From: a virus
Direction: 5' to 3' (one strand)
Length of the DNA: 64,000 nucleotides
Virus record (IMG/VR): IMGVR_UViG_3300007734_000760
Coordinates: 95,935 to 159,934 of that record
The first letter of the stretch is position 1. The number at the start of each line of letters is the position of its first letter. A program made the translations under genes and the position numbers. Shown piece by piece: positions 2,993-64,000 of the stretch. The notes beneath the pieces are model-generated. The model saw only the letters and a list, made by a program, of their open reading frames with translations. It searched no databases and was not told the origin of the DNA.

Positions 2993-3071
2993 AACTTTTT
3001 TTTAATTTAATATAAAAATAAAAAAGACTTCCTTGGAAGCCTAATTAATTCTATAAATCTTTTATGTTAAT

Positions 3072-3482
3072 CTATTTAAAAATATCATCTTCTAAATCCT
3101 TTAGACTATCAAAAAAATTATTTTTTGATACTCTTTGTTTAGAAAAAGGTGTAAAAGCATTATTTTCTCCTCTTCCTCCTTTAGCAATAATTCCAGATTT
3201 TATTAAACTGTTAATTTTAGGTCTAAGAACGGTGACATAAGATTGCGCGTTTTTATTTTGAAGTTTACTAATATTTTGAATTAAAGCATCAGCAATTTGA
3301 ATAGAATCTAATCCTTTATCTCCTGCTTTTTCTAAAGCATTAATCATTTCTACTATTTCAGGTGTATTAGCATGTAATGTTTTAAGACGTTTAGCTTTTT
3401 CTTTATCAGTAATAATTATATTATCACCAAAACGACCTTGTTTAGCTTCAGCAAGAATTTTTTGAATAAATTTATTTTCCAT
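3072..3482 (-). CDS. Hypothetical protein with leader ending ILAE
   Basis: ORF track; ATATTTATA motif 14 nt upstream. Confidence 0.7.
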   Translation of the reverse strand: MENKFIQKILAEAKQGRFGDNIIITDKEKAKRLKTLHANTPEIVEMINALEKAGDKGLDSIQIADALIQNISKLQNKNAQSYVTVLRPKINSLIKSGIIAKGGRGENNAFTPFSKQRVSKNNFFDSLKDLEDDIFK

Positions 3483-3504
3483 ACATTATGTTTATATATA
3501 AATA

Positions 3505-4281: not shown

Positions 4282-4282
4282 A

Positions 4283-4975
4283 TTACTTGTTTTTATATTT
4301 CCATTTATAACCAAATGCTGTTTTTATTTTACCTTTACAAGCTAAATTTATACAACCATTTGTAATTTTCTTATTTAAAGATAAGTAAGCTTCTGAAATA
4401 GAAGACCATTCTTTAATAAAATTATCTTGTAAATCATATTGAAGAATAGATTTATTCATAACCCCCATCATAGATTTACTTTTCTTTTCACAACTCTCCT
4501 TACTCATCTTTTTACCTTTATTAGGTGATATATGGCCTTTTAACCCTTCAGATATTTTTCTTTTAGATTCTTCAGAGTGTTTCATTCCTGTAGTACCAGC
4601 TTTAACACCACATTCTGCTATATTAGCTAATATATAACCTTTATTTCTTAAATCCAATTCTATTTCTCTTTCTTTTAATAATGCCTCTTCTTCACTTAAT
4701 CCTTCAAATAATATTTTAGATTCAAATACACCATTATTTTTATTTACAATATTATGCCAGTATTGGTTTCTACCATATTTTGATTTATCTCGTTTAGGTA
4801 TTCCTTTTCCAACATAAAATGGTTCATTTATATCAGGTCGTATATGAATATAAACTATAAAATTATTGTTTTGTTTTTTTCTCGTGATATTTTTGTTTAA
4901 GTTTTTCATCGATTTTTTCTTTATTAGACCAGTAATATTTCTTACTATATTCTCGTTGTTTAAGAATACGTTCAT
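4283..4975 (-). CDS. GIY-YIG-like homing endonuclease with NUMOD3 and NUMOD1 motifs (start uncertain)
   Basis: IVYIH...FYVGKG; HSEESKRKIS; ILQYDLQDNFIKEW...TAFGYKWKY. Confidence 0.8.
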   Translation of the reverse strand: MNVFLNNENIVRNITGLIKKKSMKNLNKNITRKKQNNNFIVYIHIRPDINEPFYVGKGIPKRDKSKYGRNQYWHNIVNKNNGVFESKILFEGLSEEEALLKEREIELDLRNKGYILANIAECGVKAGTTGMKHSEESKRKISEGLKGHISPNKGKKMSKESCEKKSKSMMGVMNKSILQYDLQDNFIKEWSSISEAYLSLNKKITNGCINLACKGKIKTAFGYKWKYKNK

Positions 4976-5006
4976 CTTCTGTTTGGTATTTTTTGATACG
5001 TCCCAT
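4863..5006 (-). CDS. Small basic protein (47 aa) overlapping the endonuclease 5' end
   Basis: MGRIKKYQTEDERILKQREYSKKYYWSNKEKIDEKLKQKYHEKKTKQ*; ATATTTATA motif 4 nt upstream. Confidence 0.6.
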   Translation of the reverse strand: MGRIKKYQTEDERILKQREYSKKYYWSNKEKIDEKLKQKYHEKKTKQ

Positions 5007-5038
5007 CGATTATAAATATTACAGATCTAAGAAAAAAT

Positions 5039-5365
5039 CTAAGAAAGTGCCTCTATTTTTGATTTTAAACTTTCTAAATTATCAAAAGGTTTTACTTTAG
5101 ATAAATCCCACCCTAATTCACCTGCAGATTTTGTATCTCCTGTTGAATTCTTCATAATGATATAATCATCTAAATCTTCTCCTAATTCATTTTCTAATGA
5201 GTATAATACTGATTTTAATCTATCAATAGGTAAAGAAGTATAAATAGGTTCAGTACTTAAATAAATACTATAGTTATTTATATGGCTTGGGTGGGTAAAT
5301 TTATTTTCACTTAATACTTTATTAATTTCCTCTTTAATAATTTGTTGTAATTCAGATTTTTTCAT
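5039..5365 (-). CDS. Leader-tagged hypothetical (putative internal head protein)
   Basis: N-terminus MKKSELQQIIKEEINKVLSE resembles other proteins in the window. Confidence 0.7.
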   Translation of the reverse strand: MKKSELQQIIKEEINKVLSENKFTHPSHINNYSIYLSTEPIYTSLPIDRLKSVLYSLENELGEDLDDYIIMKNSTGDTKSAGELGWDLSKVKPFDNLESLKSKIEALS

Positions 5366-5386
5366 GTTTATGTTTTGATATAAATA

Positions 5387-5905
5387 TTAGTCTTTTAATA
5401 TTATCTCACCAGTTTCAAAATCAATATCAGTAACTTCCGTATTCCAAATGAAGTTAACTCCTTTATCAATTAAATATGAATACCAAGCCTTAGCAATCTC
5501 ATGTAAATAGTTTGAGCCAATGTGCCATACTGGGAATAAACGTAAACCAAAATATGGTTTAATAAATTCAGGTTCTTTTTGTGGATCAGAACAGAATATT
5601 TCTTCTGGTTTAGGATGAAAACGAGTAAAGTTATCTACTACTTGTTTCATTAATTCCATTGCTTTATCTTCACCACAATATTTTGCTAATTGACCTCCAA
5701 TTTCAGTATGGTAAGTTAATTTACCATCACTCCAACCACCAGCACCTAACATACCTTCCATTACCTCTTCAGGTTTGCGGTTATATGGATCTTGTCCTTT
5801 ATCTATGATTGTGATTAGATCTCCAGGATATCCATTATCTACTAATTTAGTAGCAGCGTTAATACCTGCTACTCCTGCTCCAATAATTACAATTTTTTTA
5901 TTCAT
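5387..5905 (-). CDS. FAD-dependent oxidoreductase, N-terminal half of a split gene
   Basis: Rossmann VIIGAGVAG, GMLGAGGWSDGKL; ends at TDIDFETGEIILKD*. Confidence 0.85.
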   Translation of the reverse strand: MNKKIVIIGAGVAGINAATKLVDNGYPGDLITIIDKGQDPYNRKPEEVMEGMLGAGGWSDGKLTYHTEIGGQLAKYCGEDKAMELMKQVVDNFTRFHPKPEEIFCSDPQKEPEFIKPYFGLRLFPVWHIGSNYLHEIAKAWYSYLIDKGVNFIWNTEVTDIDFETGEIILKD

Positions 5906-5943
5906 ATTTTAAATATATAATCTTTTATCTAAGAAGCCAAAAT

Positions 5944-6018
5944 AAAAGTGGCATCCTTTTTAGGACGCCACAGCTGTCATATTTTATCTCTTTTGAGCGA
6001 CCGGCTATGAATCGGTCT
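5944..6018 (-). ncRNA. Candidate pseudoknot RNA plus intrinsic terminator, copy 1
   Basis: Stem GACCG/CGGTC with loop ATTCATAGC, downstream GCTGTGG, then hairpin GTGGCGTCCT/AGGATGCCAC-TTTT. Confidence 0.55.
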
Positions 6019-6086: not shown

Positions 6087-6299
6087 TCAACCCATAATAC
6101 TATTTCTCCTTTTTTTATTCATTACAAAATTTTTAGGTGTAATAAAATCTTGTAATTCAGGGTTATCTAATATAGCATCTTTAGTACTATTATTCATTAT
6201 GATTTTATCTTCTTGATAATCAAATTCTTGATTTTCATTAATCAAACCCGCCAATTTCTGCATGCGTTTAAATTCTTCAGATAATAATTGTTTTTTCAT
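6087..6299 (-). CDS. Leader-tagged hypothetical (MQKLAG motif), possibly frameshifted
   Basis: MKKQLLSEEFKRMQKLAGLINE; removing one A from an A7 run extends the frame to 6029. Confidence 0.65.
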   Translation of the reverse strand: MKKQLLSEEFKRMQKLAGLINENQEFDYQEDKIIMNNSTKDAILDNPELQDFITPKNFVMNKKRRNSIMG

Positions 6300-6325: not shown

Positions 6326-6796
6326 TTACATAACCCACTCAGGTTTATTATTTAATTTTTTCCAATCTAATTTTTTAATTTTTATTTTATCATTAATATA
6401 AAAATTCTTATATGCTTCTATAGTATTTTCTTTTTTAAATTCTTCGGGCATACATTGTGGAGGTTCTATAAATCCATTATCAGGTAAAATAGGCTCATTT
6501 TGTTCTAACCATTGTAATACAGTTTTAGTAGCATGTGATTTACCGTAACGTTTTTCAAATTCATTACAAATTTCTAAACCATGTTTAACTAACCATCTAT
6601 AATGATGTATGGATTGTCTTACCCAAATGGTTGATGGATGGTTTTTATGAGCTCGTTTATATGGAGCTTCTCCACCTGTTTCCCAATGGGCTGTACAACA
6701 CATTTGTGCAGATTCTATTTGCATTTTACGAATATGATCGTCTGCTAGTTGTTGTGCAGCAATAGTAGGATTTTCATTAATATAAAATATATTCAT
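6326..6796 (-). CDS. Pyrimidine-dimer DNA glycosylase (DenV-like) family protein
   Basis: MNIFY...AAQQLADDHIRKMQIESAQM, HKNHPSTIW, PPQCMP motifs. Confidence 0.75.
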   Translation of the reverse strand: MNIFYINENPTIAAQQLADDHIRKMQIESAQMCCTAHWETGGEAPYKRAHKNHPSTIWVRQSIHHYRWLVKHGLEICNEFEKRYGKSHATKTVLQWLEQNEPILPDNGFIEPPQCMPEEFKKENTIEAYKNFYINDKIKIKKLDWKKLNNKPEWVM

Positions 6797-6833
6797 ACTT
6801 TAAATATAAAAACTGTTTTTTTGTAAGCCAAAT

Positions 6834-6907
6834 AAAGAAAGCCCAATCTTTTAATTGGGCCACTACTCCATTAATTTGTTTAAACGAACATGTAATGAAT
6901 ATGTTCT
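6834..6907 (-). ncRNA. Candidate pseudoknot RNA plus intrinsic terminator, copy 2
   Basis: Stem GAACAT/ATGTTC with loop ATTCATTAC, downstream GTAGTGG, then hairpin GCCCAAT/ATTGGGC-TTTCTTT. Confidence 0.55.
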
Positions 6908-6912
6908 ATAAG

Positions 6913-7407
6913 TTAAAATTGACCTCTATATTCTTCCATTTTTGTAATCCATGAACTATTAAACATATCACCATTATTGTATAAATAATTATAAAATTTA
7001 AAATCATCAGGATCATCATCAGGAAAAGGAAATTTTACTAATCCATTTTCTAATCCAAATTTAAGTAAAAAAGTATTTGCTACTCTATTGTAGTAATCAT
7101 TAGTAGGCTCTTTATCTACTAAATCACCTAATTCTTCTGTATGGCCATCATATTCAGCTAAATCAAAAGCTAGATTATTTGTAAGATCACTATCTAGATT
7201 ATTTAAAAATTTACTCTCAATAAATATATCGTTACTTAATCTATTTGTCTGATATCCATAAAAGGACGATTTGTTTTTTTGAATTCCTATATCATAATCA
7301 TTTACATAGTCAGCTATTATAGGCTTAACATCATTATACATGTTAGATAGTGATTTAAAAGGCTTAAACACCTTAATTTCTTTTAATATGTTGATTAGTT
7401 TAATCAT
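6913..7407 (-). CDS. Leader-tagged acidic protein, tandem paralog A
   Basis: MIKLINILKEIKVFKP ... NNLAFDLAEYDG ... YRGQF*. Confidence 0.8.
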   Translation of the reverse strand: MIKLINILKEIKVFKPFKSLSNMYNDVKPIIADYVNDYDIGIQKNKSSFYGYQTNRLSNDIFIESKFLNNLDSDLTNNLAFDLAEYDGHTEELGDLVDKEPTNDYYNRVANTFLLKFGLENGLVKFPFPDDDPDDFKFYNYLYNNGDMFNSSWITKMEEYRGQF

Positions 7408-7409
7408 TT

Positions 7410-7877
7410 TTAAAATTGACCTCTATATTTTTCTAATTCTTTAAGATGTAGATTGTTAAGTATGTCACCACCATTGTATGTACTACTTAATTCTTCTTCT
7501 TCAAATCCAGCATGAAATGGAAATTTTAATACTCCAATTTCTAATGCATATTTAAGTAAAAAAGCATTTGCTAACACATTATAATAAATCATTACATTTT
7601 CATTATTAGTAAAATCAGTATAATCTCCGGTAAATCCATCGTACTCAGCTAAATCATAAGCTAAGTTATTGCTTAAGTCTCCATCTTCAAATTCACCTGT
7701 AAAATCATAATAATAAACCGGGTGATCACCATTATTATCTATCTCTATATTACCTACTACTTCACATATATTCATATATACAGCCATTATAGGTTTTATA
7801 TCTTCATACATGTTAGATATTGGTCTTAAATGTTTAAACACCTTAATTTCTTTTAATATGTTGATTAGTTTAATCAT
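7410..7877 (-). CDS. Leader-tagged acidic protein, tandem paralog B
   Basis: MIKLINILKEIKVFKH ... NNLAYDLAEYDG ... YRGQF*. Confidence 0.8.
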   Translation of the reverse strand: MIKLINILKEIKVFKHLRPISNMYEDIKPIMAVYMNICEVVGNIEIDNNGDHPVYYYDFTGEFEDGDLSNNLAYDLAEYDGFTGDYTDFTNNENVMIYYNVLANAFLLKYALEIGVLKFPFHAGFEEEELSSTYNGGDILNNLHLKELEKYRGQF

Positions 7878-7879
7878 AA

Positions 7880-8452
7880 TTAATTTTTTGTTGAATAATT
7901 AGTATTCCCACTAGCTTTATTTTTTAAAAACATTAATTGTCTGTCTGTAGCTGTATTTTTATTTTTTTCAATGTCAGCAATTACTTTTTTAGAATAATCA
8001 TCATGTAAAAGCTGTTTATAATATTGAAGATTAATAATAGGTTTACGTTTTTCTTCTCCTAAAGTTTTTGACTCATAAGTTCCTGATGCTACCCGATATG
8101 GATTAGGAAATGTAAAATTATCATTTTTACTTAAATGACCTTTTAATGGAAAATATTTTTTACTATTAATAGTAACTCCAGATCCTAAATTTATAGATTT
8201 TTTTATAGCTGACAAAATTGCTCTCGCCATATTTTCTTTTCCAGTTTCTATGTCTACAAACTCTTGTTTAAATTTAGAATTTGTTACATTCTTATTTAAA
8301 TCATCAACAATAGAAGCTGGTAAGTATAGTACTACTGTGTCCTCTTTATTGGTTTTAATAGCTCCTTTAGCTTTAATAAAATCAAATTGTTTTGGAGTAA
8401 GTTGATAATCAGTAATTACTATTTCTTTTAGTAAATTGGTAAGTTTAATCAT
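7880..8452 (-). CDS. Leader-tagged hypothetical protein
   Basis: MIKLTNLLKE leader. Confidence 0.75.
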   Translation of the reverse strand: MIKLTNLLKEIVITDYQLTPKQFDFIKAKGAIKTNKEDTVVLYLPASIVDDLNKNVTNSKFKQEFVDIETGKENMARAILSAIKKSINLGSGVTINSKKYFPLKGHLSKNDNFTFPNPYRVASGTYESKTLGEEKRKPIINLQYYKQLLHDDYSKKVIADIEKNKNTATDRQLMFLKNKASGNTNYSTKN

Positions 8453-8455
8453 TAC

Positions 8456-9472
8456 TTAAAAATCAAAAGTTTTAGTTTTATGTTTTCTAATTAATGCATC
8501 TAAAGAAGTTATCATTTCTGCTTTTGAAGCTTCATTGTTAGTAATTTCTTCTATATATGTTAATAAAGCATCAAATAATTTTACTAATTCAGGCACAGTG
8601 TCTATATTTTTTATATTTGATGCTTTAGTTTTAATCATAGCCATTATTGCATCTACATTTAAATCTTTTTCAGAAACAGTTACACCTCCTACAGTTGAAG
8701 AATTAGACTTTTTTGGAGTAGGATTTTGTGTAGCTTCATTGTACTGCTCTTCAGTAATAATACCAGCTAATTTTTGCATATGAAGTACTTCATATATATT
8801 CATATCTTCTTCCATATGACTTCTAGGTCCATATCCACCTGCTGGGTCTGTATTGTCTGGTCCAAAATCAAATTCTGCTTTTTTATCTTCTTCATCTTCA
8901 TACTTTAATTTTGAGGGTAAATTTTGAGCAAAGTCACTAAATGTTTTTCCGTATTTAGTTAAAAATCTATCTGATGTTATCTTATATAATTTATTATCAG
9001 CATTAGAGTCCTTTAAATCTTCATCATTATATCCTAAATCTTCCATAACTTCATCTTCAATTTCTCTCCAAGCATCATTTACATCTTCTTGATCAATAAA
9101 ATAGGTTTTACCAATTGGGCTATTTTCATTTAATGATGTTTCATCAATAATTTCTTCTTTTTCAGTATCTTTTACTTTTTCACTTTTACCATCTTTTGAT
9201 TTAAGTTTTTCTAATTGTTTTTGATATTTAGTTAAACTTTTTTTCAATACTTTAATTTCAGAAGCAAGTTCTTTCATTTTACTTTTATCAATCATGTCAT
9301 GATATGCTTCATCGATACCTTCCATATTCATTTTTCTCTCACGTGTGGTAATAGCATCACCTATCGCGTTAATTTTAGCTTCACAAGCTGCATTTTCACC
9401 AGCGTGATCAATTTCACTAATATAGTTTTGGATTGATTCTCTGATTAATTGTATTAAGTTTTGATTGTTCAT
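8456..9472 (-). CDS. Acidic coiled-coil protein, putative head/scaffold-associated
   Basis: LIRESI...ISE leader, internal SLNE and MQKLAGIITEE motifs. Confidence 0.7.
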   Translation of the reverse strand: MNNQNLIQLIRESIQNYISEIDHAGENAACEAKINAIGDAITTRERKMNMEGIDEAYHDMIDKSKMKELASEIKVLKKSLTKYQKQLEKLKSKDGKSEKVKDTEKEEIIDETSLNENSPIGKTYFIDQEDVNDAWREIEDEVMEDLGYNDEDLKDSNADNKLYKITSDRFLTKYGKTFSDFAQNLPSKLKYEDEEDKKAEFDFGPDNTDPAGGYGPRSHMEEDMNIYEVLHMQKLAGIITEEQYNEATQNPTPKKSNSSTVGGVTVSEKDLNVDAIMAMIKTKASNIKNIDTVPELVKLFDALLTYIEEITNNEASKAEMITSLDALIRKHKTKTFDF

Positions 9473-9504
9473 GATTTTGATTTATTATAAATATGTGATT
9501 TTTA

Positions 9505-10842
9505 TTATTTCTTATATATTTTTAATTTTAATGTACCTGTACCTTTAATAACACGATGCCATTTATGTTTAGGTATTGATATTTGTTCATTTAATGATTT
9601 AGGCAATTGATTATCTAATTGTATTTTCCAATCTGTTTTATCTACAGCTTCAATAATGCGTTTTTCATTATCACGATGCCACATTAATTCAATTGGATCT
9701 ATATTTTTATTAAATTCACGAATAATATATTTATCTGTTACTTTAATATCTTTATATGGTTTTTTATTTTCTTCTAAACCTAAATCAGATAAACTTATAT
9801 CTTCATCATCTTCTTTATCAGGTGTTGGTTCCATATAGTTTAAAACCCAACTTTTTTGTGATGATGTTAATTTATTATTTATTAAGTCTTCAATAAATTC
9901 AATAAATTCCCTAGCATTACTTTCTCTATATAAATTAGCTAAAAATAACTCAAATGCTACTTTATTACGAATATTTGCATCATTATACAGTTTTAATAAT
10001 ACTTCTTGAATATGAGTACCAAAACCAAAATCTTCAGGTTCATGTTCTAATTTATCAGCAGTATTAGCTATTGCTTGATTAATTTTTTTACTTTTAGTAA
10101 ATCCTTGTAATGATGTAATTTCATATAAACCTTTAATAATTTCATGAATTAAAAATGGAAATATTATACCTGTTGCTCTAATCTTTAATTTACCTTCTTC
10201 TTCATCAAATTTAGCTTCTGACTCTCCACCTTTGCTTTCTCCCCCACCAGCATTACCACCTGCTAGCATAGCTAAAAACATAGCTAATGCTTCTTCATCA
10301 TAAAATATACCAAATACTTTTTTTAAAGTTTCACCATATTTGTCTACACTATTTTCAATTCCACCTAATGTTTCACTATAACTATCTAATAAATTTTCAG
10401 GAACTTCATCTAAAAAATCCATAAATGGTTTATCTAAAGCACCACGAATTGAAGCGCCTTGAGTAATAGCATTTATAAGTCTTCTTTTAGCTACATCATC
10501 ATTCATTATATCTATAGGTTCTTCTTCTTCTTCTTCAGATTCTTCAGGTTCTTCAGGTTCAGAAGATAACTGGTCTTCTCCTAATGTAGCTTCTATTTCA
10601 ATATCAAATTCATCAATAACAGGATACATTCTTTTAACCATATCTACAGCTAATTTTTCTAATTCAGCTTTATATGGTGCTTCATCTTTAGCTAACTGCT
10701 TAACTAACACAGCAGAACGTTGAAGGATTTGTGTTAAACGTTCATTACCAAGCATACGTTCTCTTGATGAAACGTTTTTACCTTTTAAATTTTGAATAGT
10801 TTCAGGATTTTTAAATATATCCTTATATTGTATTTCGTTCAT
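9505..10842 (-). CDS. Hypothetical protein with fused C-terminal cupin-like module
   Basis: C-terminal ELMWHRD...IPKHKWHRVIKG after an acidic linker ending LGLEE. Confidence 0.65.
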   Translation of the reverse strand: MNEIQYKDIFKNPETIQNLKGKNVSSRERMLGNERLTQILQRSAVLVKQLAKDEAPYKAELEKLAVDMVKRMYPVIDEFDIEIEATLGEDQLSSEPEEPEESEEEEEEPIDIMNDDVAKRRLINAITQGASIRGALDKPFMDFLDEVPENLLDSYSETLGGIENSVDKYGETLKKVFGIFYDEEALAMFLAMLAGGNAGGGESKGGESEAKFDEEEGKLKIRATGIIFPFLIHEIIKGLYEITSLQGFTKSKKINQAIANTADKLEHEPEDFGFGTHIQEVLLKLYNDANIRNKVAFELFLANLYRESNAREFIEFIEDLINNKLTSSQKSWVLNYMEPTPDKEDDEDISLSDLGLEENKKPYKDIKVTDKYIIREFNKNIDPIELMWHRDNEKRIIEAVDKTDWKIQLDNQLPKSLNEQISIPKHKWHRVIKGTGTLKLKIYKK

Positions 10843-11201
10843 TATTTCTTTTTTAATAATTTATATCTTTTTACAATGTCTGCTATTCCTTTAGATACAG
10901 CTTCATTTGCTTTTGCTTTGGGTCTTGTTTTTGGGTTAGTATTTGGATTAGGATGAAGAGGATTTTTTTTCTTTTCTTCTTCTTTTGTTTTAGGTTTAGT
11001 AGGAGCTGGTGCTACTTCAGTAGATTTTGCCTTAGGTCTTGTGTTTGGATTAGTGTTTGGGTTAGGGTGAAGAGGATTTTTTTTCTTTTCTTCTTCTTTT
11101 GTTTTAGGCTTAGTAGGAGCTGGAGCTACTTCAGGAGACTTTTCAGCTAATATAGCGCGTAACTCTTCTTTAATAATCTGTTTTAATTTGTTAATTTTCA
11201 T
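10842..11201 (-). CDS. Pro/Lys-rich leader-tagged protein with an internal tandem duplication
   Basis: Likely start MKINKLKQIIKEELRAILAE; EVAPAPTKPKTKEEEKKKNPLHPNPNTNP present twice. Confidence 0.7.
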   Translation of the reverse strand: MKINKLKQIIKEELRAILAEKSPEVAPAPTKPKTKEEEKKKNPLHPNPNTNPNTRPKAKSTEVAPAPTKPKTKEEEKKKNPLHPNPNTNPKTRPKAKANEAVSKGIADIVKRYKLLKKK

Positions 11202-11250
11202 AATTTGCTGTTTTATTTTTATTTTAGTATGTTTATTATTTAATTGGTCC

Positions 11251-11337
11251 TCACTTACGATCGGCAATTCGTTTACAGCGATCTGCTTTTTTCTTTTCTT
11301 CAAGAAGAATTTGTTTAAATATATAAGCAAGATTCAT
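11251..11337 (-). pseudogene. Truncated leader-tagged ORF remnant (28 aa)
   Basis: TAATG-coupled start; MNLAYIFKQILLEEKKKADRCKRIADRK* followed by in-frame GPIK*. Confidence 0.4.
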
Positions 11338-11705
11338 TATATTCCTATGTTATTTAATGTAGGTTCAGCTTTAAATGTAACTACTCCTTTAATACGATTA
11401 ATATTATCAATGATCATTTTAATAGTTTCAATAGTAAAATGACCATTTTTTAAATATGGATATGGATCTACTTTAATAGTAACTCTATTATAACTATATC
11501 CTTGTTTAGGTAAATTAGGAATATATTCTTCTGTGTCCATAGTTGTAACACCAGTTATTGAACGAATATCAGAAAACACTTGTGTTTGTGTTTTTTTAGC
11601 AAAGTCAGTAACTAATAAGCCTTCTATTTTATAAAGTTTTTCAGCTGAGTCTTCACGCAGTATTTTACGTAATTCTTCTCTAATTATTTTTTTTAATTTT
11701 TCCAT
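11337..11705 (-). CDS. Leader-tagged hypothetical protein
   Basis: MEKLKKIIREELRKILRE. Confidence 0.75.
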   Translation of the reverse strand: MEKLKKIIREELRKILREDSAEKLYKIEGLLVTDFAKKTQTQVFSDIRSITGVTTMDTEEYIPNLPKQGYSYNRVTIKVDPYPYLKNGHFTIETIKMIIDNINRIKGVVTFKAEPTLNNIGI

Positions 11706-14368
11706 TATTTTTTTAATTTAAACCATTCTTTTAATGATTCTTTAACAAATTCTGAAAGTGTATCATTTGGTTTATTTGATGATTGTATATCTTTAATATC
11801 ATATACTCTATTATACTTATCTCCACTATTAGCAAAATCAATTGAAGCAAGCTTATTGTCTTTTTTTAATTGGGGTAAATTATATTTATCTTTTATAACT
11901 TTACCTTGTTCATCCATTAACACCCAAACATCATAGTTGTCATTTGATTGAGGTAAAAATACATATTTTTGACTTCCATCTTTAATAACAAAAGGTAAAG
12001 CATATAATAAATTTTCATATTTTAAATTTTGATTATATCTTTCAACTAATTCAATAATTGAACGTCTTTCTAATGTTGATAAATCGCTCCAATATTTTTG
12101 ATCTATAGCTCTAGGATAAACACCTTGTGTTGGCATAATAGATTTTAATTCTAATTCTTCATCACTCATATTAGTTGATGAAGTAAGCTGCCATGGACCA
12201 TATAATTTTGAATATATATCAAATAATTGTTTTAATTTAGGATTATCAATGTATTTTTCAGGTCCTTTTTCTGGCAAATAGTCTAAATTTTGTATTTGAT
12301 CATTTACATACTTTTTAGTTGTTTCTTTTCCAAAATATTTTTCAATGTATTCAAAGGTTAAAAACTCTTGATATTTTGATAAAATTATTTGTTTTGCGTT
12401 TTCATCTAAATATTTAATATAAGGTAAAGGAAGTAATTTATCAGTATTATTCTCAGCATTATTTTCAGCATTACCACCCTGTCTAAAATTAACTATAGCA
12501 TATCGTTTTGCTAAAGATTCATATTGTTTTAAAATAAAGTAAGGAAAAGTTTGACCATTATTTATAGCTTCATTAGCTAAAGTTGTTGGTTTACCATATT
12601 CATCTACTGTTTTATATTTAGGTAAAATTTCTAATATATCATTAGTTAAACCTTGTTTTTGAGATTTACCTTTAACATAATCTACTTTTTCATCATTAGT
12701 TAATTCTTTAAATTCAGTTAAACTTAAATTTTTACCTGATGCTAATTTTCTAAGGCGTTCAGATTTTGATAATTCTATTGGTTTAAAATAATCTTTTAAA
12801 TTTTTAATTTTTCCCCATATATCTGCTGGTATTTTATTAGATATGTCTTCCCAACTTTTAGCTGTAACATCTGAAGGGTTATCAGCATTGGTTATTTGAT
12901 ATGTTTTACCATCTGATTCTATTCTTATTACAAAAGCATGCCATACATCTTTAAAGGGTTTATGGTCTGGGGTAGAGGGTCTATTTCTATCAAATATAAA
13001 ATAAAATGTAGGCGCAACTTCTCTAAATCTATAACTATCATACATGTTACCTCCTCCAGCTTGAGTTACACACCATGCATATTTTTGCCGACTAGTAGAA
13101 GCTACTTTAGGATTATATGAAATACATTTATGCATATCATCTCCTTTATATATTTCTATTCCGTCTTTATCATATATTTTATCAGCATCTGTAGACACAT
13201 TATTTATCTCTCCAGAAATTTCTTTTTTAGAAGGAAATAAAGCGTCTAACATTTGTTCTAAAGGATGAAATTCCCAATTGCGTGGATCTAAATATAAATT
13301 ATTTCTTAATAAATTTTTAGGAATAAGTTTTTCTACATCTTCTTTAGTATATAATTCATCATCAGTACCATCTATAAGAGCACCTTTTAAATTATTTCTA
13401 TTAGATATAAAACGAGCAACATATGATTGAGCTAGATCTTTACCTATTTGTTCTTTTTCAACAAATTTTTTAACTGCTTCTTTTTTTATGTTTTCTGTAT
13501 TTTCAGGTAATGATTTAATTAACTTAATCATATCATCAAATGAGTATTTATATATATTAAGATAATTTTGTCCTTGTCTTAAAGTATCAGATAAAACTAC
13601 TATGTTTAATTTTTGAGTTAATGAAGCTTTAGCTTTTTCAAAATCAGCAATTTGTTTTTTAAGATATTCATCATGTTTTTTCTGAGTTGCCTCTGTTGGA
13701 AATTCTGTTGCCCATTCTGGATGTTCATTTTTCCAACGTGTTATAGTATCATTAATTACTTTTTCAGCGTATTCTTTAATTAATATTTTAGATTCATCGA
13801 TATCTTCATCATCGTTATCTTCATCATCGTTAATATTTTCAGATTTTTTAACTGCTTCAATAGCATACTTAACACAATAATTAATTATTTGATCAAATTT
13901 TACACTCTTATCTCCCCAATATAAAGGCATTGGAATTCTTTTATAGTGTGCTACCGCTGCCCAAAATGCTTGTTTAGCAGCATTACCTGCCGCCGCCTCA
14001 GCAGATGAAAAGCCCCATCCTAGATGATCAGGATCATAATCATCATCATCATAATCACTACGTCCATAATCTTTATATCTTAAAAGATTAGTGATAGTGG
14101 CAGAATCTGTTGGATTAGCTAAATATGCTTTAGCAGTTTCTATTGCGTTATGAGGAGTTTCACTATGTGTTCCTGGGTGGTATTTTTCAAAAATATGTAA
14201 AACCCTCTCAGCGCATTGAATTGCTAAAGACAGTTTTTCTTTATCATCTTTAGATGCTTCTATTCTAGATTTAAGAGATTGAAGTATAGGAAGTTGTGAA
14301 GGTTTAAATACTTTAATTTCATTAAGTATCTCTTTTTTAATTATATTTATTAATTCTGATTTTTTCAT
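11705..14368 (-). CDS. Large modular protein: leader, Imm5-like domain, unknown domains
   Basis: ILNE|IKVFKP then SLAIQCAERVLHIFEKYHP...PHNAIETAKAYL; acidic linker ending IDE and LIKE. Confidence 0.8.
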   Translation of the reverse strand: MKKSELINIIKKEILNEIKVFKPSQLPILQSLKSRIEASKDDKEKLSLAIQCAERVLHIFEKYHPGTHSETPHNAIETAKAYLANPTDSATITNLLRYKDYGRSDYDDDDYDPDHLGWGFSSAEAAAGNAAKQAFWAAVAHYKRIPMPLYWGDKSVKFDQIINYCVKYAIEAVKKSENINDDEDNDDEDIDESKILIKEYAEKVINDTITRWKNEHPEWATEFPTEATQKKHDEYLKKQIADFEKAKASLTQKLNIVVLSDTLRQGQNYLNIYKYSFDDMIKLIKSLPENTENIKKEAVKKFVEKEQIGKDLAQSYVARFISNRNNLKGALIDGTDDELYTKEDVEKLIPKNLLRNNLYLDPRNWEFHPLEQMLDALFPSKKEISGEINNVSTDADKIYDKDGIEIYKGDDMHKCISYNPKVASTSRQKYAWCVTQAGGGNMYDSYRFREVAPTFYFIFDRNRPSTPDHKPFKDVWHAFVIRIESDGKTYQITNADNPSDVTAKSWEDISNKIPADIWGKIKNLKDYFKPIELSKSERLRKLASGKNLSLTEFKELTNDEKVDYVKGKSQKQGLTNDILEILPKYKTVDEYGKPTTLANEAINNGQTFPYFILKQYESLAKRYAIVNFRQGGNAENNAENNTDKLLPLPYIKYLDENAKQIILSKYQEFLTFEYIEKYFGKETTKKYVNDQIQNLDYLPEKGPEKYIDNPKLKQLFDIYSKLYGPWQLTSSTNMSDEELELKSIMPTQGVYPRAIDQKYWSDLSTLERRSIIELVERYNQNLKYENLLYALPFVIKDGSQKYVFLPQSNDNYDVWVLMDEQGKVIKDKYNLPQLKKDNKLASIDFANSGDKYNRVYDIKDIQSSNKPNDTLSEFVKESLKEWFKLKK
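14261..14321. repeat. 61-nt exact repeat, copy 1 (encodes EIKVFKPSQLPILQSLKSRI)
   Basis: Identical to 15572-15632. Confidence 0.9.
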
Positions 14369-59378: not shown

Positions 59379-60062
59379 TTATTTATATTTCCAAATAAAA
59401 CCGTAGGCTGTCTTTTGTCGTCCCCTACAACAATCCGCTGTATTATTTCCTTTTCCACCCATTTTCATATCAGCTTCTTTAGATGAGTTGAAAGTATTTA
59501 TTAAATTACCTTTTAAATCATATTGCTCTACTTGTCTAGAAGATTTAATCCATGGTTTTCTATTTTTAAGTGCAATCCTAAGATTTTCAGCATGTTGTGG
59601 AGTAAGAGATTTACCTTTTTTAGCCTGGCTTATTTTTTGTTTTTGTTCTTCAGTATGTTTAGTTCCTTTATTTCTACTTATTCCTTTATTAGCTTGACTA
59701 ATTTTATTCTTTAAACCATCAGACATAAAATCTTTTGGTTTTGGTTTACCTTTAACTTTTAATTGCCATTCAATTTTTATTCTCTCATATGTTTTACCAG
59801 ATATGTTATAGTGATTTTCTCTTTTTTTATTTTTACCTATAGCCATCAAAAATAAAGCATATTTTAATTTATCTATTGATGGGTATATCTCACATAATAA
59901 ACGATGACATAAGAAATGTTCTTTAGCGGTTAATTCAACTATATTATTTATATCCTTACCTCCTATACAACGAGGTATTATGTGGTGTTTTTCTTTATAA
60001 CAATTTAGTTGTCTTGTTTTTGCTCGTTCAATAATTTGGTTATATATTCTTTGATAATCCAT
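59379..60062 (-). CDS. HNH homing endonuclease with NUMOD3/NUMOD1
   Basis: EKHHIIPRCIGG...LTAKEHFLCH; HTEEQKQKIS; TAYGFIWKY. Confidence 0.85.
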   Translation of the reverse strand: MDYQRIYNQIIERAKTRQLNCYKEKHHIIPRCIGGKDINNIVELTAKEHFLCHRLLCEIYPSIDKLKYALFLMAIGKNKKRENHYNISGKTYERIKIEWQLKVKGKPKPKDFMSDGLKNKISQANKGISRNKGTKHTEEQKQKISQAKKGKSLTPQHAENLRIALKNRKPWIKSSRQVEQYDLKGNLINTFNSSKEADMKMGGKGNNTADCCRGRQKTAYGFIWKYK

Positions 60063-60112
60063 GTTTTCCAATAAATATATAACCTATCATTGGAAATACT
60101 AATTTAAGTTGG

Positions 60113-61180
60113 CTATTCATAGGTTTCTCTTCCTATCTGAATAACTTTTGGGAAGCGAGGAATACCATCACTAGTTAATTCAAAATATTTTATAGTAGCA
60201 GTTTGTCCAATTAACTCATCTTTATGTAGCCATAACTCCTCTAAATATTCATGACTTCCATTTACAGCTGAATCGAATCCATCAAATATTAGTTTACCCA
60301 CCTTATTCTGTAGTTTTCCTTTTCCTTCAACTACACCTTTAATTATAAATTCACTATCCATAAATGACTTGTTTTTTAACAAATAAGATGAACGTTTATT
60401 TTGGTATGGTGAATCTAATACTCTCAGCATTTGTCCTTCAAACCCATCATTAATATATTGTTTATATAATTCAATTACTTCAGCTTCAATACGAGCTAAT
60501 TCAGTAGAAACTAAAACACAACATTTAGGTAGATTTAATGTTTTTAAAAACGCTGTACGTTCAGAAAACACACCATTAAATGATGGGCAATCATATATCC
60601 AATATTGAATATATTTTTTACTTTCAATTAAGTCCTCAGGTTTTGGTTTTGTTTTTTTAACACAAGATATAATTTTATTAAAATCACAACTTTCCTTTAA
60701 AGCAAAAAGTTCTCCATCTAATATTAGATTAGGATTAGACTCAAATAGTGGTTTTAATGATTCAAAAATATGTGGTGACGATACAATTTTTTTTCCATTT
60801 CTACTCCACATACCATCTTTTTTAATAAGAGATCTTACTCCATCTAACTTTTTCTGACTAGCGAGAGGGAATTTAACTTTATCTTTATAATCTTCCCACT
60901 TATTAGCTAACATTGGCTCAAAAAATGTTTCATTATCTATATCAGCAATACTCTCAAATGCTCCTGCTTCTATTTTTTTACGATGCATTGCCGTTGCTTC
61001 TTTTATGGCTTGTTCTTCTGCTGTACAATATGATTTTACTTCACAAGTGGTCCATTCAGATATTGTTTTAATTCCATCATCAAATCCACTTGTTGTTCTA
61101 AATTGATTACCTTGAACTTCAATAAACCAAGTATTTATTTTACCGTTTACTGAGCGTGAGTATAATGTTGTTAATTTCAT
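60113..61180 (-). CDS. ATP-dependent DNA ligase
   Basis: EPMLA, KLDGVR, LDGEL, EGQMLR, LLKNK, GIPRFP. Confidence 0.92.
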   Translation of the reverse strand: MKLTTLYSRSVNGKINTWFIEVQGNQFRTTSGFDDGIKTISEWTTCEVKSYCTAEEQAIKEATAMHRKKIEAGAFESIADIDNETFFEPMLANKWEDYKDKVKFPLASQKKLDGVRSLIKKDGMWSRNGKKIVSSPHIFESLKPLFESNPNLILDGELFALKESCDFNKIISCVKKTKPKPEDLIESKKYIQYWIYDCPSFNGVFSERTAFLKTLNLPKCCVLVSTELARIEAEVIELYKQYINDGFEGQMLRVLDSPYQNKRSSYLLKNKSFMDSEFIIKGVVEGKGKLQNKVGKLIFDGFDSAVNGSHEYLEELWLHKDELIGQTATIKYFELTSDGIPRFPKVIQIGRETYE

Positions 61181-61676: not shown

Positions 61677-62144
61677 TTACACAATTTTTATAATCTCGTT
61701 CAATCGTCTAATCTCAGCAATTACATCATCACCTAATTCAATTTTAGACATTGCTGTTAAGTCCATTATTTGACAAAATAATAGATTAATTAATTCACTT
61801 TTTGCTTTCTCTCTTGGCGTTGTATCCTCTGGCCAATCTTCAGTATGTTCATATGGTTCATTTTCTAAACCATCATTTAAAGTTACATCCCAATCTTTTA
61901 ATTCAGCTTCTTCAGATGTAATTATCTTAGCGTATTTAGGAAAGTGATCAGGTCCGTTGTTATCATAATCAGTGACTATTTCAAAATCTACTTCTAACCC
62001 TTCATTAGAGTCGTATAGTTTTAAACCATCTATATGGCCATTGTCTATTAATGGATACTGGTTGATTAGTTTAGCATGTGTTCCTTCTTTAACTACTTGC
62101 TTTACTACCCACCCACGATTTGTTTTATTTAATATTCCTTTCAT
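61677..62144 (-). CDS. Hypothetical protein
   Basis: ORF track. Confidence 0.7.
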   Translation of the reverse strand: MKGILNKTNRGWVVKQVVKEGTHAKLINQYPLIDNGHIDGLKLYDSNEGLEVDFEIVTDYDNNGPDHFPKYAKIITSEEAELKDWDVTLNDGLENEPYEHTEDWPEDTTPREKAKSELINLLFCQIMDLTAMSKIELGDDVIAEIRRLNEIIKIV

Positions 62145-62314
62145 ATTAGTCTTGTTTTTATTTCTTTTATTTTTTTCCAGTCTTTTTGTAATTTTTCTTT
62201 AATAGCCAAACGAATAAATTGATTTACATTAACTCCATAATTTTGTAAAATATTTAAACTATTGATTTGCTGTTCAGTAAATCTAATTGTTTTACTTTTA
62301 GTTAGTTGCTTCAT
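62141..62314 (-). CDS. Ribbon-helix-helix-like DNA-binding protein (57 aa)
   Basis: MKQLTKVKTIRFTEQQINSLNILQNYGVNVNQFIRLAIKEKLQKDWKKIKEIKTRLI*; ATGA overlap with next gene; not in ORF track. Confidence 0.7.
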   Translation of the reverse strand: MKQLTKSKTIRFTEQQINSLNILQNYGVNVNQFIRLAIKEKLQKDWKKIKEIKTRLI

Positions 62315-62353
62315 ATTTGAGTTACATTTATTAGTTTTATCAAGTAGTTATCA
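62315..62353 (+). other. Putative attI-like site
   Basis: First cassette boundary G|TTATCAGG at 62347 is not preceded by a hairpin; upstream AGTTACA and AGTTTTA boxes. Confidence 0.45.
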
Positions 62354-62374
62354 GGAATACTACGATTCCGTTTT

Positions 62375-62566
62375 TCAACACGTTTGGTCGCAGTATCCGC
62401 TTAAGCAACATTGCAAAGAACAATATCCTGTTTTATCTTCAAATTTATCATTGCAATCGTCACATAAATCATAACCTTTGCTATTCCAATTGTCTAAATT
62501 ATCTGTAAACTCTTCACATCCTATGCACCATTTATCGCATTTATCTGTTTTTTTTTCGCTTTTCAT
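62375..62566 (-). CDS. Cassette 1 ORF: Cys-rich small protein
   Basis: CxxWCxxC, CDDC and CSLQCCLSGYCDQTC; wholly within cassette 62348-62668. Confidence 0.7.
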   Translation of the reverse strand: MKSEKKTDKCDKWCIGCEEFTDNLDNWNSKGYDLCDDCNDKFEDKTGYCSLQCCLSGYCDQTC

Positions 62567-62598
62567 AACATATTTATTTTTTAATTAATTCGTACTCC

Positions 62599-62674
62599 TG
62601 ATAACAACCGTTACAACCCACCGCCGAATCTACGCAACTACTTAGGCGGCGTGCTGTAGCGGTAAGCGTTATAA
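62599..62674 (+). other. attC-like site 1 (76 nt)
   Basis: TGATAAC-A-ACCGTTACA..CCGCC / GGCGG..TGTAGCGGT-AAGC-GTTATAA. Confidence 0.8.
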
Positions 62675-62680
62675 CCAATG

Positions 62681-62842
62681 CTAAAGAATCGACATTCTAA
62701 ATTCATCATCTTTGCTATCAGTCCCTTCGACATAGATTATTATTTCAGTTCCACTACAAAGCAATTTAAAAGCATAAGTTTGATGCTTCTTTTTCATAGC
62801 CCTTAACCATTTGACCATTTTCCAATATTTCCAGTTAATCAT
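62681..62842 (-). CDS. Cassette 2 ORF (53 aa)
   Basis: MINWKYWKMVKWLRAMKKKHQTYAFKLLCSGTEIIIYVEGTDSKDDEFRMSIL*; not in ORF track. Confidence 0.6.
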   Translation of the reverse strand: MINWKYWKMVKWLRAMKKKHQTYAFKLLCSGTEIIIYVEGTDSKDDEFRMSIL

Positions 62843-62928
62843 GTGTATAGTTTTTAATTGTTTTCTTTATATGTTTTTTTAATCGTGTATAGATTTTGGC
62901 ACTTTTCTTTACATATCATAAGCACTGG

Positions 62929-63005
62929 TTATAACAGCACCTATACGCAATTTTCACACCGCACAAAACCGACACACAACTGCGTATAGCTGCATCACGT
63001 TAGTG
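62929..63005 (+). other. attC-like site 2 (77 nt)
   Basis: TTATAAC-A-GCACCTATACGCAATT / AACTGCGTATAGCTGC-ATCAC-GTTAGTG. Confidence 0.85.
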
Positions 63006-63203
63006 GCAAGGCATCAGACGATAAGTCATAACCGACCAAGTGTAATTACTATTAGGTGCTTTTACAACTGTAAACAACCTTTGAGGCGTTTGTTCTACAA
63101 CTTCAACCTTCGATTTATTTGACAGGTCGTAATCTAGCCAAACAATTTGCCCAGCCACTAACAGCTTTTTTGAGCAAGTGACTTCTGTGTTTAATTTATT
63201 CAT
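63000..63203 (-). CDS. Cassette 3 ORF (67 aa)
   Basis: Starts inside attC3; its stop codon is the TTA of the cassette boundary GTTAG. Confidence 0.7.
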   Translation of the reverse strand: MNKLNTEVTCSKKLLVAGQIVWLDYDLSNKSKVEVVEQTPQRLFTVVKAPNSNYTWSVMTYRLMPCH

Positions 63204-63284
63204 GGTTTTATGTTTTTATTATTAGTTATTAATTTATACATTCGGCAAGCTTTTCCACCTGCTCAAAGACGCAGCACGTTATGT
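63156..63284 (+). other. attC-like site 3 (129 nt)
   Basis: CACTAAC-A-GCTTTTTTGAGCAAGTG / CACCTGCTCAAAGACGC-AGCAC-GTTATGT. Confidence 0.8.
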
Positions 63285-63285
63285 A

Positions 63286-63519
63286 TCATTTTTTCTTGCG
63301 CATCACATCAGTAATAGCATAATTCCATCTTTCCATCAATTCACCATCCGCTTGGTTATGGAAAATTTTAATCATTTCCATACTTGTAAATCTTTCAGGT
63401 GAACCTTTAAGGTAGAAATGAGAATTACCACTTGGTTTATAATCAGGAAATGATTCCGTTTTATAATGTTGTATATCTAATTCTACCAACCAATCTAACA
63501 TCTTTTCTAAATTTTCCAT
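63286..63519 (-). CDS. Cassette 4 ORF (77 aa)
   Basis: MENLEKMLDWL...; fills the cassette from boundary to boundary. Confidence 0.75.
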   Translation of the reverse strand: MENLEKMLDWLVELDIQHYKTESFPDYKPSGNSHFYLKGSPERFTSMEMIKIFHNQADGELMERWNYAITDVMRKKK

Positions 63520-63531
63520 AATAAAAACGAT

Positions 63532-63662
63532 ACATAACAAAGTGTATAAGTAATAACCGAGTTATGTGGTTTATTTAAGTTACTACTTCTATTTAACATT
63601 ATCTTTAATTCAAACTTTTGTACTTCTAAATCGGTTACTACTCATACACTCAACCGTTATCG
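63532..63662 (+). other. attC-like site 4 (131 nt)
   Basis: ACATAAC-AA-AGTGTATAAGTAATAACCGA / TCGGTTACTACTCATACACT-CAACC-GTTATCG. Confidence 0.85.
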
Positions 63663-63672
63663 GCAATATATA

Positions 63673-63808
63673 TCAGTTATCAATACATTTGTCATATAAT
63701 CGTTCTTTAAGCATCCCCTCGATAAGAATAAGATAATTAATTGCATCACCTATTTTCTCCTCAATATATTTATCGGTAAAGTTTACAGTTCCATTATCAA
63801 CTGAATCA
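63673..63808 (-). pseudogene. Headless 3' gene fragment in truncated cassette 5
   Basis: ...DKYIEEKIGDAINYLILIEGMLKERLYDKCIDN* with no plausible start; resembles the C-terminus of DUF1599-like proteins. Confidence 0.5.
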
Positions 63809-64000
63809 CTAAATAAAAATCACATTTCCGTTACTAGTTAATTTACCAAACTTACCATCAGTTACTACACTTCCATTACTATAGATTGTATCACTTATTG
63901 ATAGTTTCATTGTTCCTGCATTAATGATGTCTTCACAATTATGGATATGACCAAACAAGCATAGTTTAGGTTTTAAATCTAACATACGCTTTTTAAGTGA
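63809..64000 (-). CDS. Metallophosphoesterase, C-terminal part (runs off window end)
   Basis: KPKLCLFGHIHN...YSNGSVV. Confidence 0.75.
   Translation of the reverse strand, partial: SLKKRMLDLKPKLCLFGHIHNCEDIINAGTMKLSISDTIYSNGSVVTDGKFGKLTSNGNVIFI

Follow-up and report, generated by a model that had tools for sequence, protein, structure and literature searches.

Integron-like hairpins bound four small, swappable gene cassettes in a 160-kb phage of Bacteroidota

A 160-kb phage of Bacteroidota carries four small, swappable gene units bounded by integron-type DNA hairpins, which form part of a little-recognised gene-shuffling system that these phages share with the chromosomes of their hosts. The array lies near the end of the window, i.e., the 64,000-nucleotide stretch of DNA analysed here (positions 95,935 to 159,934 of IMG/VR record IMGVR_UViG_3300007734_000760). 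An earlier note, made from the sequence alone, described four imperfect palindromes separating single small ORFs, and its observation is confirmed. Its interpretation, that the phage acquires and reorders accessory genes as circular cassettes by exchange at G|TT, is supported by comparative data, although circular intermediates and the acting enzyme have not been shown. By contrast, the note's term "jumbo phage" is incorrect, because the genome comprises 159,934 bp with a terminal repeat, and its statement that integron cassettes are not well described in lytic phages is partly out of date, since attC clusters in virulent phages, including Polaribacter phage P12002L, have been reported (Qi et al. 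2023, PMC9892861).

The four hairpins run from TAAC through GTTA at 62602-62671, 62932-63002, 63159-63281, and 63535-63659 and are 70, 71, 123, and 125 nt long, each 6 nt shorter than given in the earlier note. They separate four small minus-strand ORFs, each of which is closed by its own 14-bp inverted repeat (the arms). One unit comprises a hairpin, an arm, the ORF, and the second arm, cut at TAAC| on the coding strand (G|TTA on the plus strand). The locus is organised as follows.

62141-62314, minus strand: 57-aa RHH-like gene that marks the fixed end of the array.
62315-62346, minus strand: conserved leader and primary-site junction (TAAC|TACTTGATAA... on the coding strand), the attI-like position.
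62347-62667, minus strand: cassette 1, with arms 62347-62360 and 62592-62605, ORF1 62375-62566 (63 aa, Cys-rich), and hairpin P1 62602-62671.
62668-62998, minus strand: cassette 2, with arms 62668-62681 and 62922-62935, ORF2 62681-62842 (53 aa), and hairpin P2 62932-63002.
62999-63277, minus strand: cassette 3, with arms 62999-63012 and 63149-63162, ORF3 63000-63203 (67 aa), and hairpin P3 63159-63281.
63278-63655, minus strand: cassette 4, with arms 63278-63291 and 63525-63538, ORF4 63286-63519 (77 aa), and hairpin P4 63535-63659.
63656-63808, minus strand: remnant of a fifth cassette, with a consensus 3' arm (coding strand ATATTGCCGATAAC, 63656-63669) without its partner arm and with no open frame.

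All four inverted repeats that the earlier note assigned to the cassettes' own ends are present, at 62344-62360/62592-62608 (17 nt, 88%), 62668-62687/62916-62935 (20 nt, 85%), 62999-63013/63148-63162 (15 nt, 87%), and 63278-63293/63523-63538 (16 nt, 94%). ORF3 departs from the description of ORFs separated by hairpins, because its ATG lies in the P3 loop and it reads through its own arm. All four hairpins read TAACA...CGTTA on the plus strand, which is TAACG...TGTTA with a G.T pair on the minus strand, and the minus strand folds better in all four. Chance is excluded as the origin of these palindromes: a genome-wide scan for GTTA(+10)...(10+)TAAC pairs with at least 12/14 matches gave 17 hits against a mean of 11.5 in 20 dinucleotide shuffles, and four of the 17 are tiled end to end in this 1.3 kb and nowhere else, for which a Poisson estimate derived from these numbers is about 3e-6. 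A simple GC-island scan and a first rigid hairpin scan were too insensitive to be useful.

The arms pair with their own partner across the ORF at 9.7 of 10 variable positions, although cassettes were selected for at least 9 of 10, and much less with the neighbour across the hairpin (5.3 of 10), at 29 junctions of this family. This own-end pairing satisfies the integron criterion that a crossover at G|TT leaves each cassette with the partner of its own R box. The stem is exactly 14 bp: in 103 distinct arm pairs, pairing falls to background from position 15, positions 5-14 show all four Watson-Crick pair types, and position 11 is G.T in 70 of 103. The arm pairs were selected for at least 13 of 14 pairs, so the high pairing at positions 5-14 is partly built in, whereas position 11 was not selected for.

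The sites are imperfect palindromes bounded by inverse cores, as expected of attC (R'' RYYYAAC and R' GTTRRRY); TAAC and GTTA are invariant in all four window sites and in the 11 aligned sites, although the bases outside the core fit RYYY/RRRY only loosely. The inner stem covaries, with compensatory changes in 5 of 7 pairs and pairing in 93% of cells against 32-47% when the partner is slid. With regard to an inner L box with extrahelical bases and an unpaired central spacer conferring strand selectivity, a 4-nt spacer on one side only, a G/G mismatch in the 7-bp inner stem, and the G.T wobble in the outer stem were observed; these features are analogous but are not the canonical layout, and they do not settle whether the criterion is fulfilled. 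A site model built on the phage hairpins (R1) scores P1 at 44 bits and P2 at 59.8 bits, although both are training sequences, whereas P4, which was not a training sequence, scores 19.6 bits (E 0.008), and P3 gives a weak 12.9 bits (E 0.46). P2 fits the family consensus TAACG-4 nt-GCAGCTA...TAGGTGC-T-GTTA. The curated attC covariance model (IntegronFinder / HattCI+Infernal) was not applied to these sites; for the relative P12002L_attC1, HattCI called the site and HattCI+Infernal did not (PMC9892861).

Gain, loss, or reordering exactly at G|TT in related genomes had been named in the earlier note as the test of cassette mobility, and the comparison is positive five times. The phage L014 carries an extra methyltransferase unit relative to its near-identical relatives L015 and L013. 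The cultured Polaribacter phages P12002S and P12002L differ by an extra unit and a different order, and the near-identical phages L100 and L114 differ by one replacement and one extra unit. Furthermore, window cassette 4 sits as an exact unit in the unrelated phage array L130, being 98.4% identical over 385 nt (window 63660-63276 to L130 2860-3244), with flanks that are unrelated beyond ATAAC| and |GT. Only 5-6 nt are shared at the breakpoints, too few for homologous recombination or for an assembly artefact. Some cassettes, however, share arms but carry different ORFs, which simple whole-unit exchange does not explain; for example, the cassette 3 arm sequence occurs in L130 284-556 around a different ORF. 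In a related phage (L001), the phosphoesterase gene is joined directly to the 155-aa gene, so the whole stretch 62145-63808 is absent. Reads were not examined for circular junctions or population variants. In GenBank phages, no close relative of the locus was found, and only the phosphoesterase gene matched.

About 40 phage arrays end 32-36 nt upstream of a conserved small RHH-like gene. Homologues of about 60 aa follow the last cassette in 36 IMG/VR loci and in P12002S, and in nearly all RHH loci the last cassette ends ...TAAC 32-36 nt before the RHH ATG, followed by TAYTNG.TA...AAATGTA. The AF2 model of this protein has a pLDDT of 84.7 and the top Foldseek rows are RHH proteins, but none is significant, and searches of Pfam and of PDB sequences returned no hit. 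The protein shows no likeness to the N-terminal extension of the bacterial recombinase described below, and it occurs in only four small metagenome-bin contigs among 185,579 species genomes.

The same sites are found in bacteria. Model R1 hits 60 of 151 sampled genomes of class Bacteroidia, and in the four regions read in detail the hits lie in one-strand arrays with the same arms and wobble. In all five genomes checked, the best TIGR02249 match lies 0.3 to about 24 kb beyond the TAAC end, at the edge of the cluster of site hits, and it is co-directional with the cassette genes in the array that was read closely. Bacterial arrays end ...TAAC|TAGTATA next to the recombinase gene. The one such protein scanned against NCBIfam has the Xer/IntI profile, although it scores below the TIGR02249 and NF040815 cut-offs (194 against 265 bits for the integron-integrase cut-off) and about as well with Xer models. 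The bacterial arrays have the canonical order of a cassette ORF followed by its attC. By contrast, in the phages all 16 site hits lie on the ORF strand with the hairpin upstream of the ORF, so that phage genes lie on the opposite strand, relative to the site, from those in the bacterial arrays.

No tyrosine or serine recombinase is present in the complete phage genome, in which searches with PF00589, PF00239, and PF01797 (Y1 transposase) were all negative; no IntI integrase with its extra domain therefore adjoins an attI, and the RHH-like gene occupies that position. No other gene is conserved next to the phage arrays, counting same-strand ORFs only, and a direct tblastn search with the bacterial recombinase found it in only one phage locus (L132). 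The integrase near the array of phage L110 is an ordinary phage/CTnDOT-type enzyme absent from the other genomes. Recombination was not assayed here. In the literature, P12002L_attC1, a hairpin of exactly this type and the only site of this family tested, was the one site of six that IntI1 failed to recombine, whereas IntI1 did recombine the similar TAACG...TGTTA sites of Pseudoalteromonas phage PH101 (PMC9892861).

The favoured explanation, held with good confidence, is an integrase-less array of four mobile gene cassettes, plus one remnant, of an integron-like system used by Bacteroidota and their phages. On the coding strand each unit reads G, hairpin, GTTA arm, ORF, and arm TAAC. In a free circular unit the two 14-bp arms would close on the hairpin, giving one long folded site with an outer stem (NNATTRCNNNTAAC paired with GTTANNNGYAGTNN, with a G.T wobble at position 11), a short unpaired spacer, and an inner stem with a G/G mismatch. 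In this view, units enter, leave, and swap by site-specific strand exchange at TAA|C on this strand, which is G|TT on the other and is the geometry of integron attC x attC and attC x attI recombination, and the preferred entry point is next to the RHH-like gene. The analysis itself demonstrates the anatomy, the family, the unit-exact gain, loss, replacement, and sharing, the same sites in bacterial arrays near a Xer/IntI-like recombinase, and the lack of a tyrosine or serine recombinase in this phage, whereas folding of a single strand, circular intermediates, supply of the recombinase in trans by the host (or a co-infecting phage), and any role of the RHH-like protein are inferred.

Among the alternatives, shuffling by the phage's general homologous recombination between conserved intergenic repeats, as with the PeSL modules of T4-type phages described below, without a dedicated site-specific enzyme, is unlikely. 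It is favoured by the lack of a recombinase in this phage, by a 20-30-nt consensus shared by the hairpins, by an array (L012) flanked by two 48-nt hairpins that differ at one base, and by identical arms around different cargo. However, at every breakpoint the two genomes share only TAACG or GCTAAC and the adjacent hairpins differ at once, the hybrid-site pattern in which own arms pair and neighbours do not needs a crossover fixed at one position, and a dedicated recombinase accompanies the same sites in bacteria. About equally unlikely is that the hairpins are only RNA elements of the minus-strand transcript (terminators, processing or stability sites), that the flanking repeats are long-range RNA stems, and that nothing moves at the DNA level. 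The G.U wobbles fall on the transcribed sense strand, several ORFs start in a hairpin loop or just after it, and attC sites are thought to act as weak terminators (PMC9892861). Nevertheless, gain, loss, replacement, and sharing occur at TAAC| to the base, a recombinase gene lies near the bacterial arrays, and in those arrays the same folded strand is antisense to the genes, so the strand asymmetry noted earlier is real but belongs to the DNA site and not to the mRNA; an added RNA role is not excluded. Finally, a small transposon of the MITE or IS200/IS605 kind is very unlikely: although units end in TAAC and insert after TAAC, resembling the peel-and-paste insertion of IS200/IS605 elements 3' of a target tetranucleotide, the arms look like terminal inverted repeats, and MITE screens link Flavobacteriales and their phages (bioRxiv 10.1101/2024.01.18.576219), the arms differ between cassettes outside a few fixed positions, there is no target duplication, no Y1 transposase was found, units occur only in ordered one-strand arrays at one locus, and the enzyme near the bacterial arrays is a tyrosine recombinase of the Xer/IntI kind.

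The closest described systems are the clusters of attC sites lacking an integrase (CALINs) in virulent phages, especially P12002L (PMC9892861), which belongs to the same family. The window's RHH-like protein has a 48%-identical homologue at the end of the methyltransferase array of the sibling phage P12002S, the published P12002L_attC1 is one of the TAACG...TGTTA hairpins, and the methyltransferase cargo and absence of an integrase also match. That study reports two sites called in divergent directions and, in the parts consulted, does not describe the 14-bp own-end arms, the G.T wobble, the RHH-marked end, the inverted gene polarity, the unit-exact differences between P12002S and P12002L, or the host arrays. 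Sedentary chromosomal integrons, with IntI, attI, and arrays of similar attC sites such as the Vibrio cholerae repeats, share the G|TT crossover, a site with an outer box, an unpaired spacer, and an inner box with a mismatch, and, in the hosts, one-strand arrays next to a recombinase gene; however, the outer stem here is 14 bp with conserved internal positions instead of a 7-bp R box, the host enzyme scores below the integron-integrase cut-off, and the phage arrays have no enzyme and carry their genes on the other strand. The integration of CTX-phi single-stranded DNA by host XerCD at a folded hairpin is a precedent for a phage using a host Xer-family recombinase on a folded single-stranded site with a partly unpaired central region, and the arms here end in ...TAA| as Xer-binding arms do. 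This link is an analogy and not a test, because in that case a whole phage genome integrates at the chromosomal dif site, whereas here small cassettes move within arrays. The promoter-early stem-loop (PeSL) modules of T4-type phages likewise place small accessory genes, separated by stem-loops and shuffled between relatives, in a hyperplastic region of a large lytic phage. PeSL exchange rests on homology between direct repeats that carry a promoter, whereas here the breakpoints share 5-6 nt and the sites are polar hairpins with hybrid ends; promoter content was not examined.

Integrons are the textbook device by which bacteria stockpile and reorder accessory genes, and they are held to be nearly absent from Bacteroidetes, in which IntegronFinder 2.0 reports a single complete integron, in Salinibacter ruber (PMC9024848), and rare in phages, with 17 CALINs in 10,705 genomes (PMC9892861). 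The frequency of R1 hits in one Bacteroidota class, obtained with a model built only from phage hairpins, and the exchange of the same units, to the base, among dozens of uncultured phages and two cultured ones stand against this background. A further reading, considered about as likely as not, is that Bacteroidota and their lytic phages share an integron-like system that standard integron searches largely miss, served by a Xer-like recombinase and using sites with a 14-bp sequence-specific outer stem. In this reading, phages keep an adapted version in which the genes are flipped so that the recombining strand is the coding strand and start codons sit in or just after the hairpin, the fixed end is marked by a small RHH-like protein, and the host enzyme is borrowed during infection to reshuffle anti-defence genes such as DNA methyltransferases. 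If a host recombinase works on phage DNA during lytic growth, this would be a direct route for rapid turnover of counter-defence genes, in an experimentally tractable case because Polaribacter and Flavobacterium phage-host pairs exist in culture.

The cargo of the window array has no assigned function: ORF1 to ORF4 have no Pfam hit, no relative of ORF1 was found in IMG/VR, and ORF4 was not found in 401 sampled genomes of the class. In the wider family, by contrast, 10 of 80 cassette ORFs are DNA-modification enzymes, one eighth of the phage cargo with a recognisable family.

The analyzed window is the last 64 kb of a single 159,934-bp contig with a terminal overlap of approximately 135 nt, which is classed in IMG/VR as having direct terminal repeats and is rated 100% complete by CheckV. 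The GC content is approximately 26%, and the genes in the region lie on the minus strand. The nearest matches are Flavobacterium and Polaribacter phages and small contigs binned with uncultured Bacteroidetes, from which the host is inferred to be a member of the Bacteroidota. The order along the coding strand is as follows:

Stop at 63809 (minus strand): calcineurin-like phosphoesterase gene
Next (minus strand): a 150-nt remnant
Next (minus strand): four units, each made of a hairpin and a small ORF
62141-62314 (minus strand): gene for a 57-aa RHH-like protein
Next (minus strand): gene for a 155-aa protein

Just downstream of the array region, a homing-endonuclease-like ORF of 230 aa (59379-60071), judged by eye from its translation without a family search, as was its neighbor, sits next to an ATP-dependent DNA ligase-like gene (60113-61180).

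The observation made in the earlier note, that four imperfect palindromes separate single small ORFs and that the left end of each cassette is the reverse complement of its own right end, is confirmed. The four own-end inverted repeats are all present at the stated places, and the four hairpins measure 70, 71, 123, and 125 nt from TAAC through GTTA. All four read TAACG...TGTTA on the minus strand, and the minus strand folds better in each. Across the genome, GTTA...TAAC pairs with at least 12 of 14 complementary bases number 17, against 11.5 in shuffled sequences; four of these tile this 1.3 kb and none elsewhere tile, and the pattern is not chance.

The extent of one unit was settled by comparison with related phages, in which gain, loss, or reordering exactly at G|TT had been proposed in advance as the criterion for mobile cassettes. 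In L001, a related phage, the phosphoesterase gene abuts the 155-aa gene, so the whole 1.66 kb is an accessory block. The phage loci L014 and L015/L013 are 99.7% identical and differ by 752 nt consisting of G, a hairpin, a spacer with ATG, a GTTA arm, a DNA methyltransferase gene, and an arm ending in TAAC, and the two ends share only GCTAAC. The L100 and L114 loci are 99.8-100% identical and differ by one unit replaced and one extra unit next to the RHH-like gene, with all four breakpoints at TAAC|. The cultured Polaribacter phages P12002S and P12002L differ by one inserted unit at ...GCAGGTAAC|G, and the order of two methyltransferase units also differs. Finally, cassette 4 of the window (63655-63278) is 98.4% identical to positions 2860-3244 of L130, where the match ends at ATAAC| on one side and |GT on the other; in L130, it sits inside an array of nine units in a 43-kb contig whose flanks are unrelated. 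One unit is thus hairpin, arm, ORF, and arm, cut at TAA|C on the coding strand, which is G|TTA on the plus strand as the earlier note had proposed. Five or six shared bases are too few for homologous recombination or for assembly chimeras. Some cassettes, by contrast, share the same arms, plus approximately 50 nt at the 5′ end and approximately 29 nt at the 3′ end, but carry different ORFs and different hairpins (L114 4342-4695 versus L100 5585-5969; window 62999-63162 versus L130 284-556). Whole-unit exchange does not explain these cases, which hint at cargo replacement inside a constant frame.

A search with the RHH-like protein yielded 36 IMG/VR loci. In nearly all of these, the last unit ends in TAAC 32-36 nt before the RHH ATG and is followed by a conserved leader, and arrays hold up to approximately nine units. 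In 103 distinct arm pairs, the stem is exactly 14 bp, and all four Watson-Crick pair types occur at positions 5-14. Position 11 is G.T on the coding strand in 70 of them, position 12 is mostly T-A, and position 10 is A-T or T.T; because the pairs were picked for at least 13 of 14 pairs, only the stem length and position 11 are free findings. The hairpins share TAACG, approximately four unpaired bases, GCAG-CTA...TAG-GTGC with a G/G mismatch, and T-GTTA, and the inner stem covaries. A covariance model built on 11 compact sites, including the hairpins of cassettes 1 and 2, finds in this genome only the four hairpins of the locus. Of 80 cassette ORFs, six are N6/N4 methyltransferases, two are C5 methyltransferases, one is TRM-like, and one is a TET-associated glycosyltransferase, whereas the rest are mostly unknown.

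The same model hits 60 of 151 sampled genomes of the class of a Bacteroidetes bin at E <= 1e-4, a tally that includes one unpublished genome (G094) on which no other claim rests. In the four regions read in detail, hits recur every 0.6-1.5 kb on one strand, and the units there have the same 14-bp own-end arms and the same G.T wobble. In all five genomes checked, a tyrosine recombinase of 370-400 aa lies beyond the TAAC| end, 0.3 to approximately 24 kb past the last site hit, at the edge of the hit cluster, and it runs co-directional with the cassette genes in the one array that was read closely. The single example scanned against NCBIfam scores 208 bits on the XerA/integron-integrase model (cut-off 220), 194 on the integron-integrase model (cut-off 265), and 187 on XerD. 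In these bacterial arrays, the genes lie on the strand opposite to the site orientation, the canonical integron order of ORF followed by attC, whereas in phages all 16 site hits are on the gene strand. Consequently, the strand asymmetry belongs to the DNA site and not to the mRNA, and phage cassettes have inverted gene polarity, with the hairpin upstream of the ORF and sometimes holding its start codon. Furthermore, one bacterial genome (G126) carries on C1 five copies of a recombinase with identical scores and open frames of 320-335 aa (13071-13904, 3517464-3518297, 4305213-4306046, 4338592-4339425, and 4372698-4373531), four of which lie in or near its chromosomal cassette arrays, apart from the array-end recombinases of 375-378 aa; this may be a mobile element that targets the arrays.

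Regarding the enzyme involved, this phage has no tyrosine or serine recombinase and no Y1 transposase, and no same-strand neighbor gene other than the RHH-like one is conserved. A direct search with the bacterial recombinase found it in only one phage locus, L132, which has a Xer-like gene (38% identical) beside two sites and a homologue of ORF4, the ORF of cassette 4. The RHH-like protein is confined to phage sequences, and its fold assignment is only suggestive. It is therefore inferred, although not demonstrated here, that the array is served in trans, most likely by the recombinase of the host. Homologues of ORF4 in L131 (3001-3228) and L132 (3001-3222), 82% and 72% identical, respectively, lie in ordinary, hairpin-free contexts, and in L132 the gene directly follows the Xer-like recombinase gene; these may show how a gene looks before it becomes a cassette.

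In a screen of 10,705 phage genomes, 17 CALINs were reported (Qi et al., 2023; PMC9892861), one of which is in the virulent Polaribacter phage P12002L with methyltransferase cargo. In that study, IntI1 recombined five of the six sites tested, and the failure was P12002L_attC1, which is one of the hairpins of this family. IntegronFinder 2.0 found Bacteroidetes almost devoid of integrons (PMC9024848). The general idea is thus published, while the family-level picture was not found in the literature consulted. The integron-like interpretation put forward in the earlier note is supported by the present analysis, although the acting enzyme, the folding of a single strand, and circular intermediates are inferences. 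New relative to print are the 14-bp arms with a fixed wobble, the RHH-marked end, the inverted gene polarity, unit-exact exchange among phages, and the link to widespread Bacteroidia arrays near a Xer/IntI-like enzyme.

Individual arrays show additional features. The array in L014 lies between two identical 26-nt gene starts (MKQTAVEWL...; 5926-5951 and 8240-8265), as if the whole array had been placed by homologous recombination between paralogous genes. The array in the L012 locus is flanked by two 48-nt hairpins that differ at a single base (6094-6141 and 7112-7160) and has no RHH-like gene at its end. The contig L110 (IMGVR_UViG_3300033120_000925) has cassette arrays on both sides of its RHH-like gene (1989-5591 and 6559-11460), and an ordinary phage-type integrase (414 aa, L124 1456-2700) lies approximately 2 kb upstream, so the phage is probably temperate. 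An "empty" unit, in which the arms alone form a small hairpin, GTTAGCAAAtcgttttaatgTTTGCTAAC, is present in L014 (6866-6894) and in the L115 locus just upstream of its RHH gene (approximately 2640-2668). The loop TCGTTTTAATG also recurs in hairpins of L012, L100, L105, and P12002L. It may be a cassette precursor or a conserved binding loop. In many cassettes, e.g., at L014 7014, L014 7396, L012 6892, and L130 3352, the ORF often starts upstream of the 5′ arm and reads through it in one frame (GTT AGN NNN AGN, giving V-S-x-S), and the stop codon is often the TAG just outside the 3′ arm or the TAA inside TAAC; the arms are therefore under both coding and pairing constraint.
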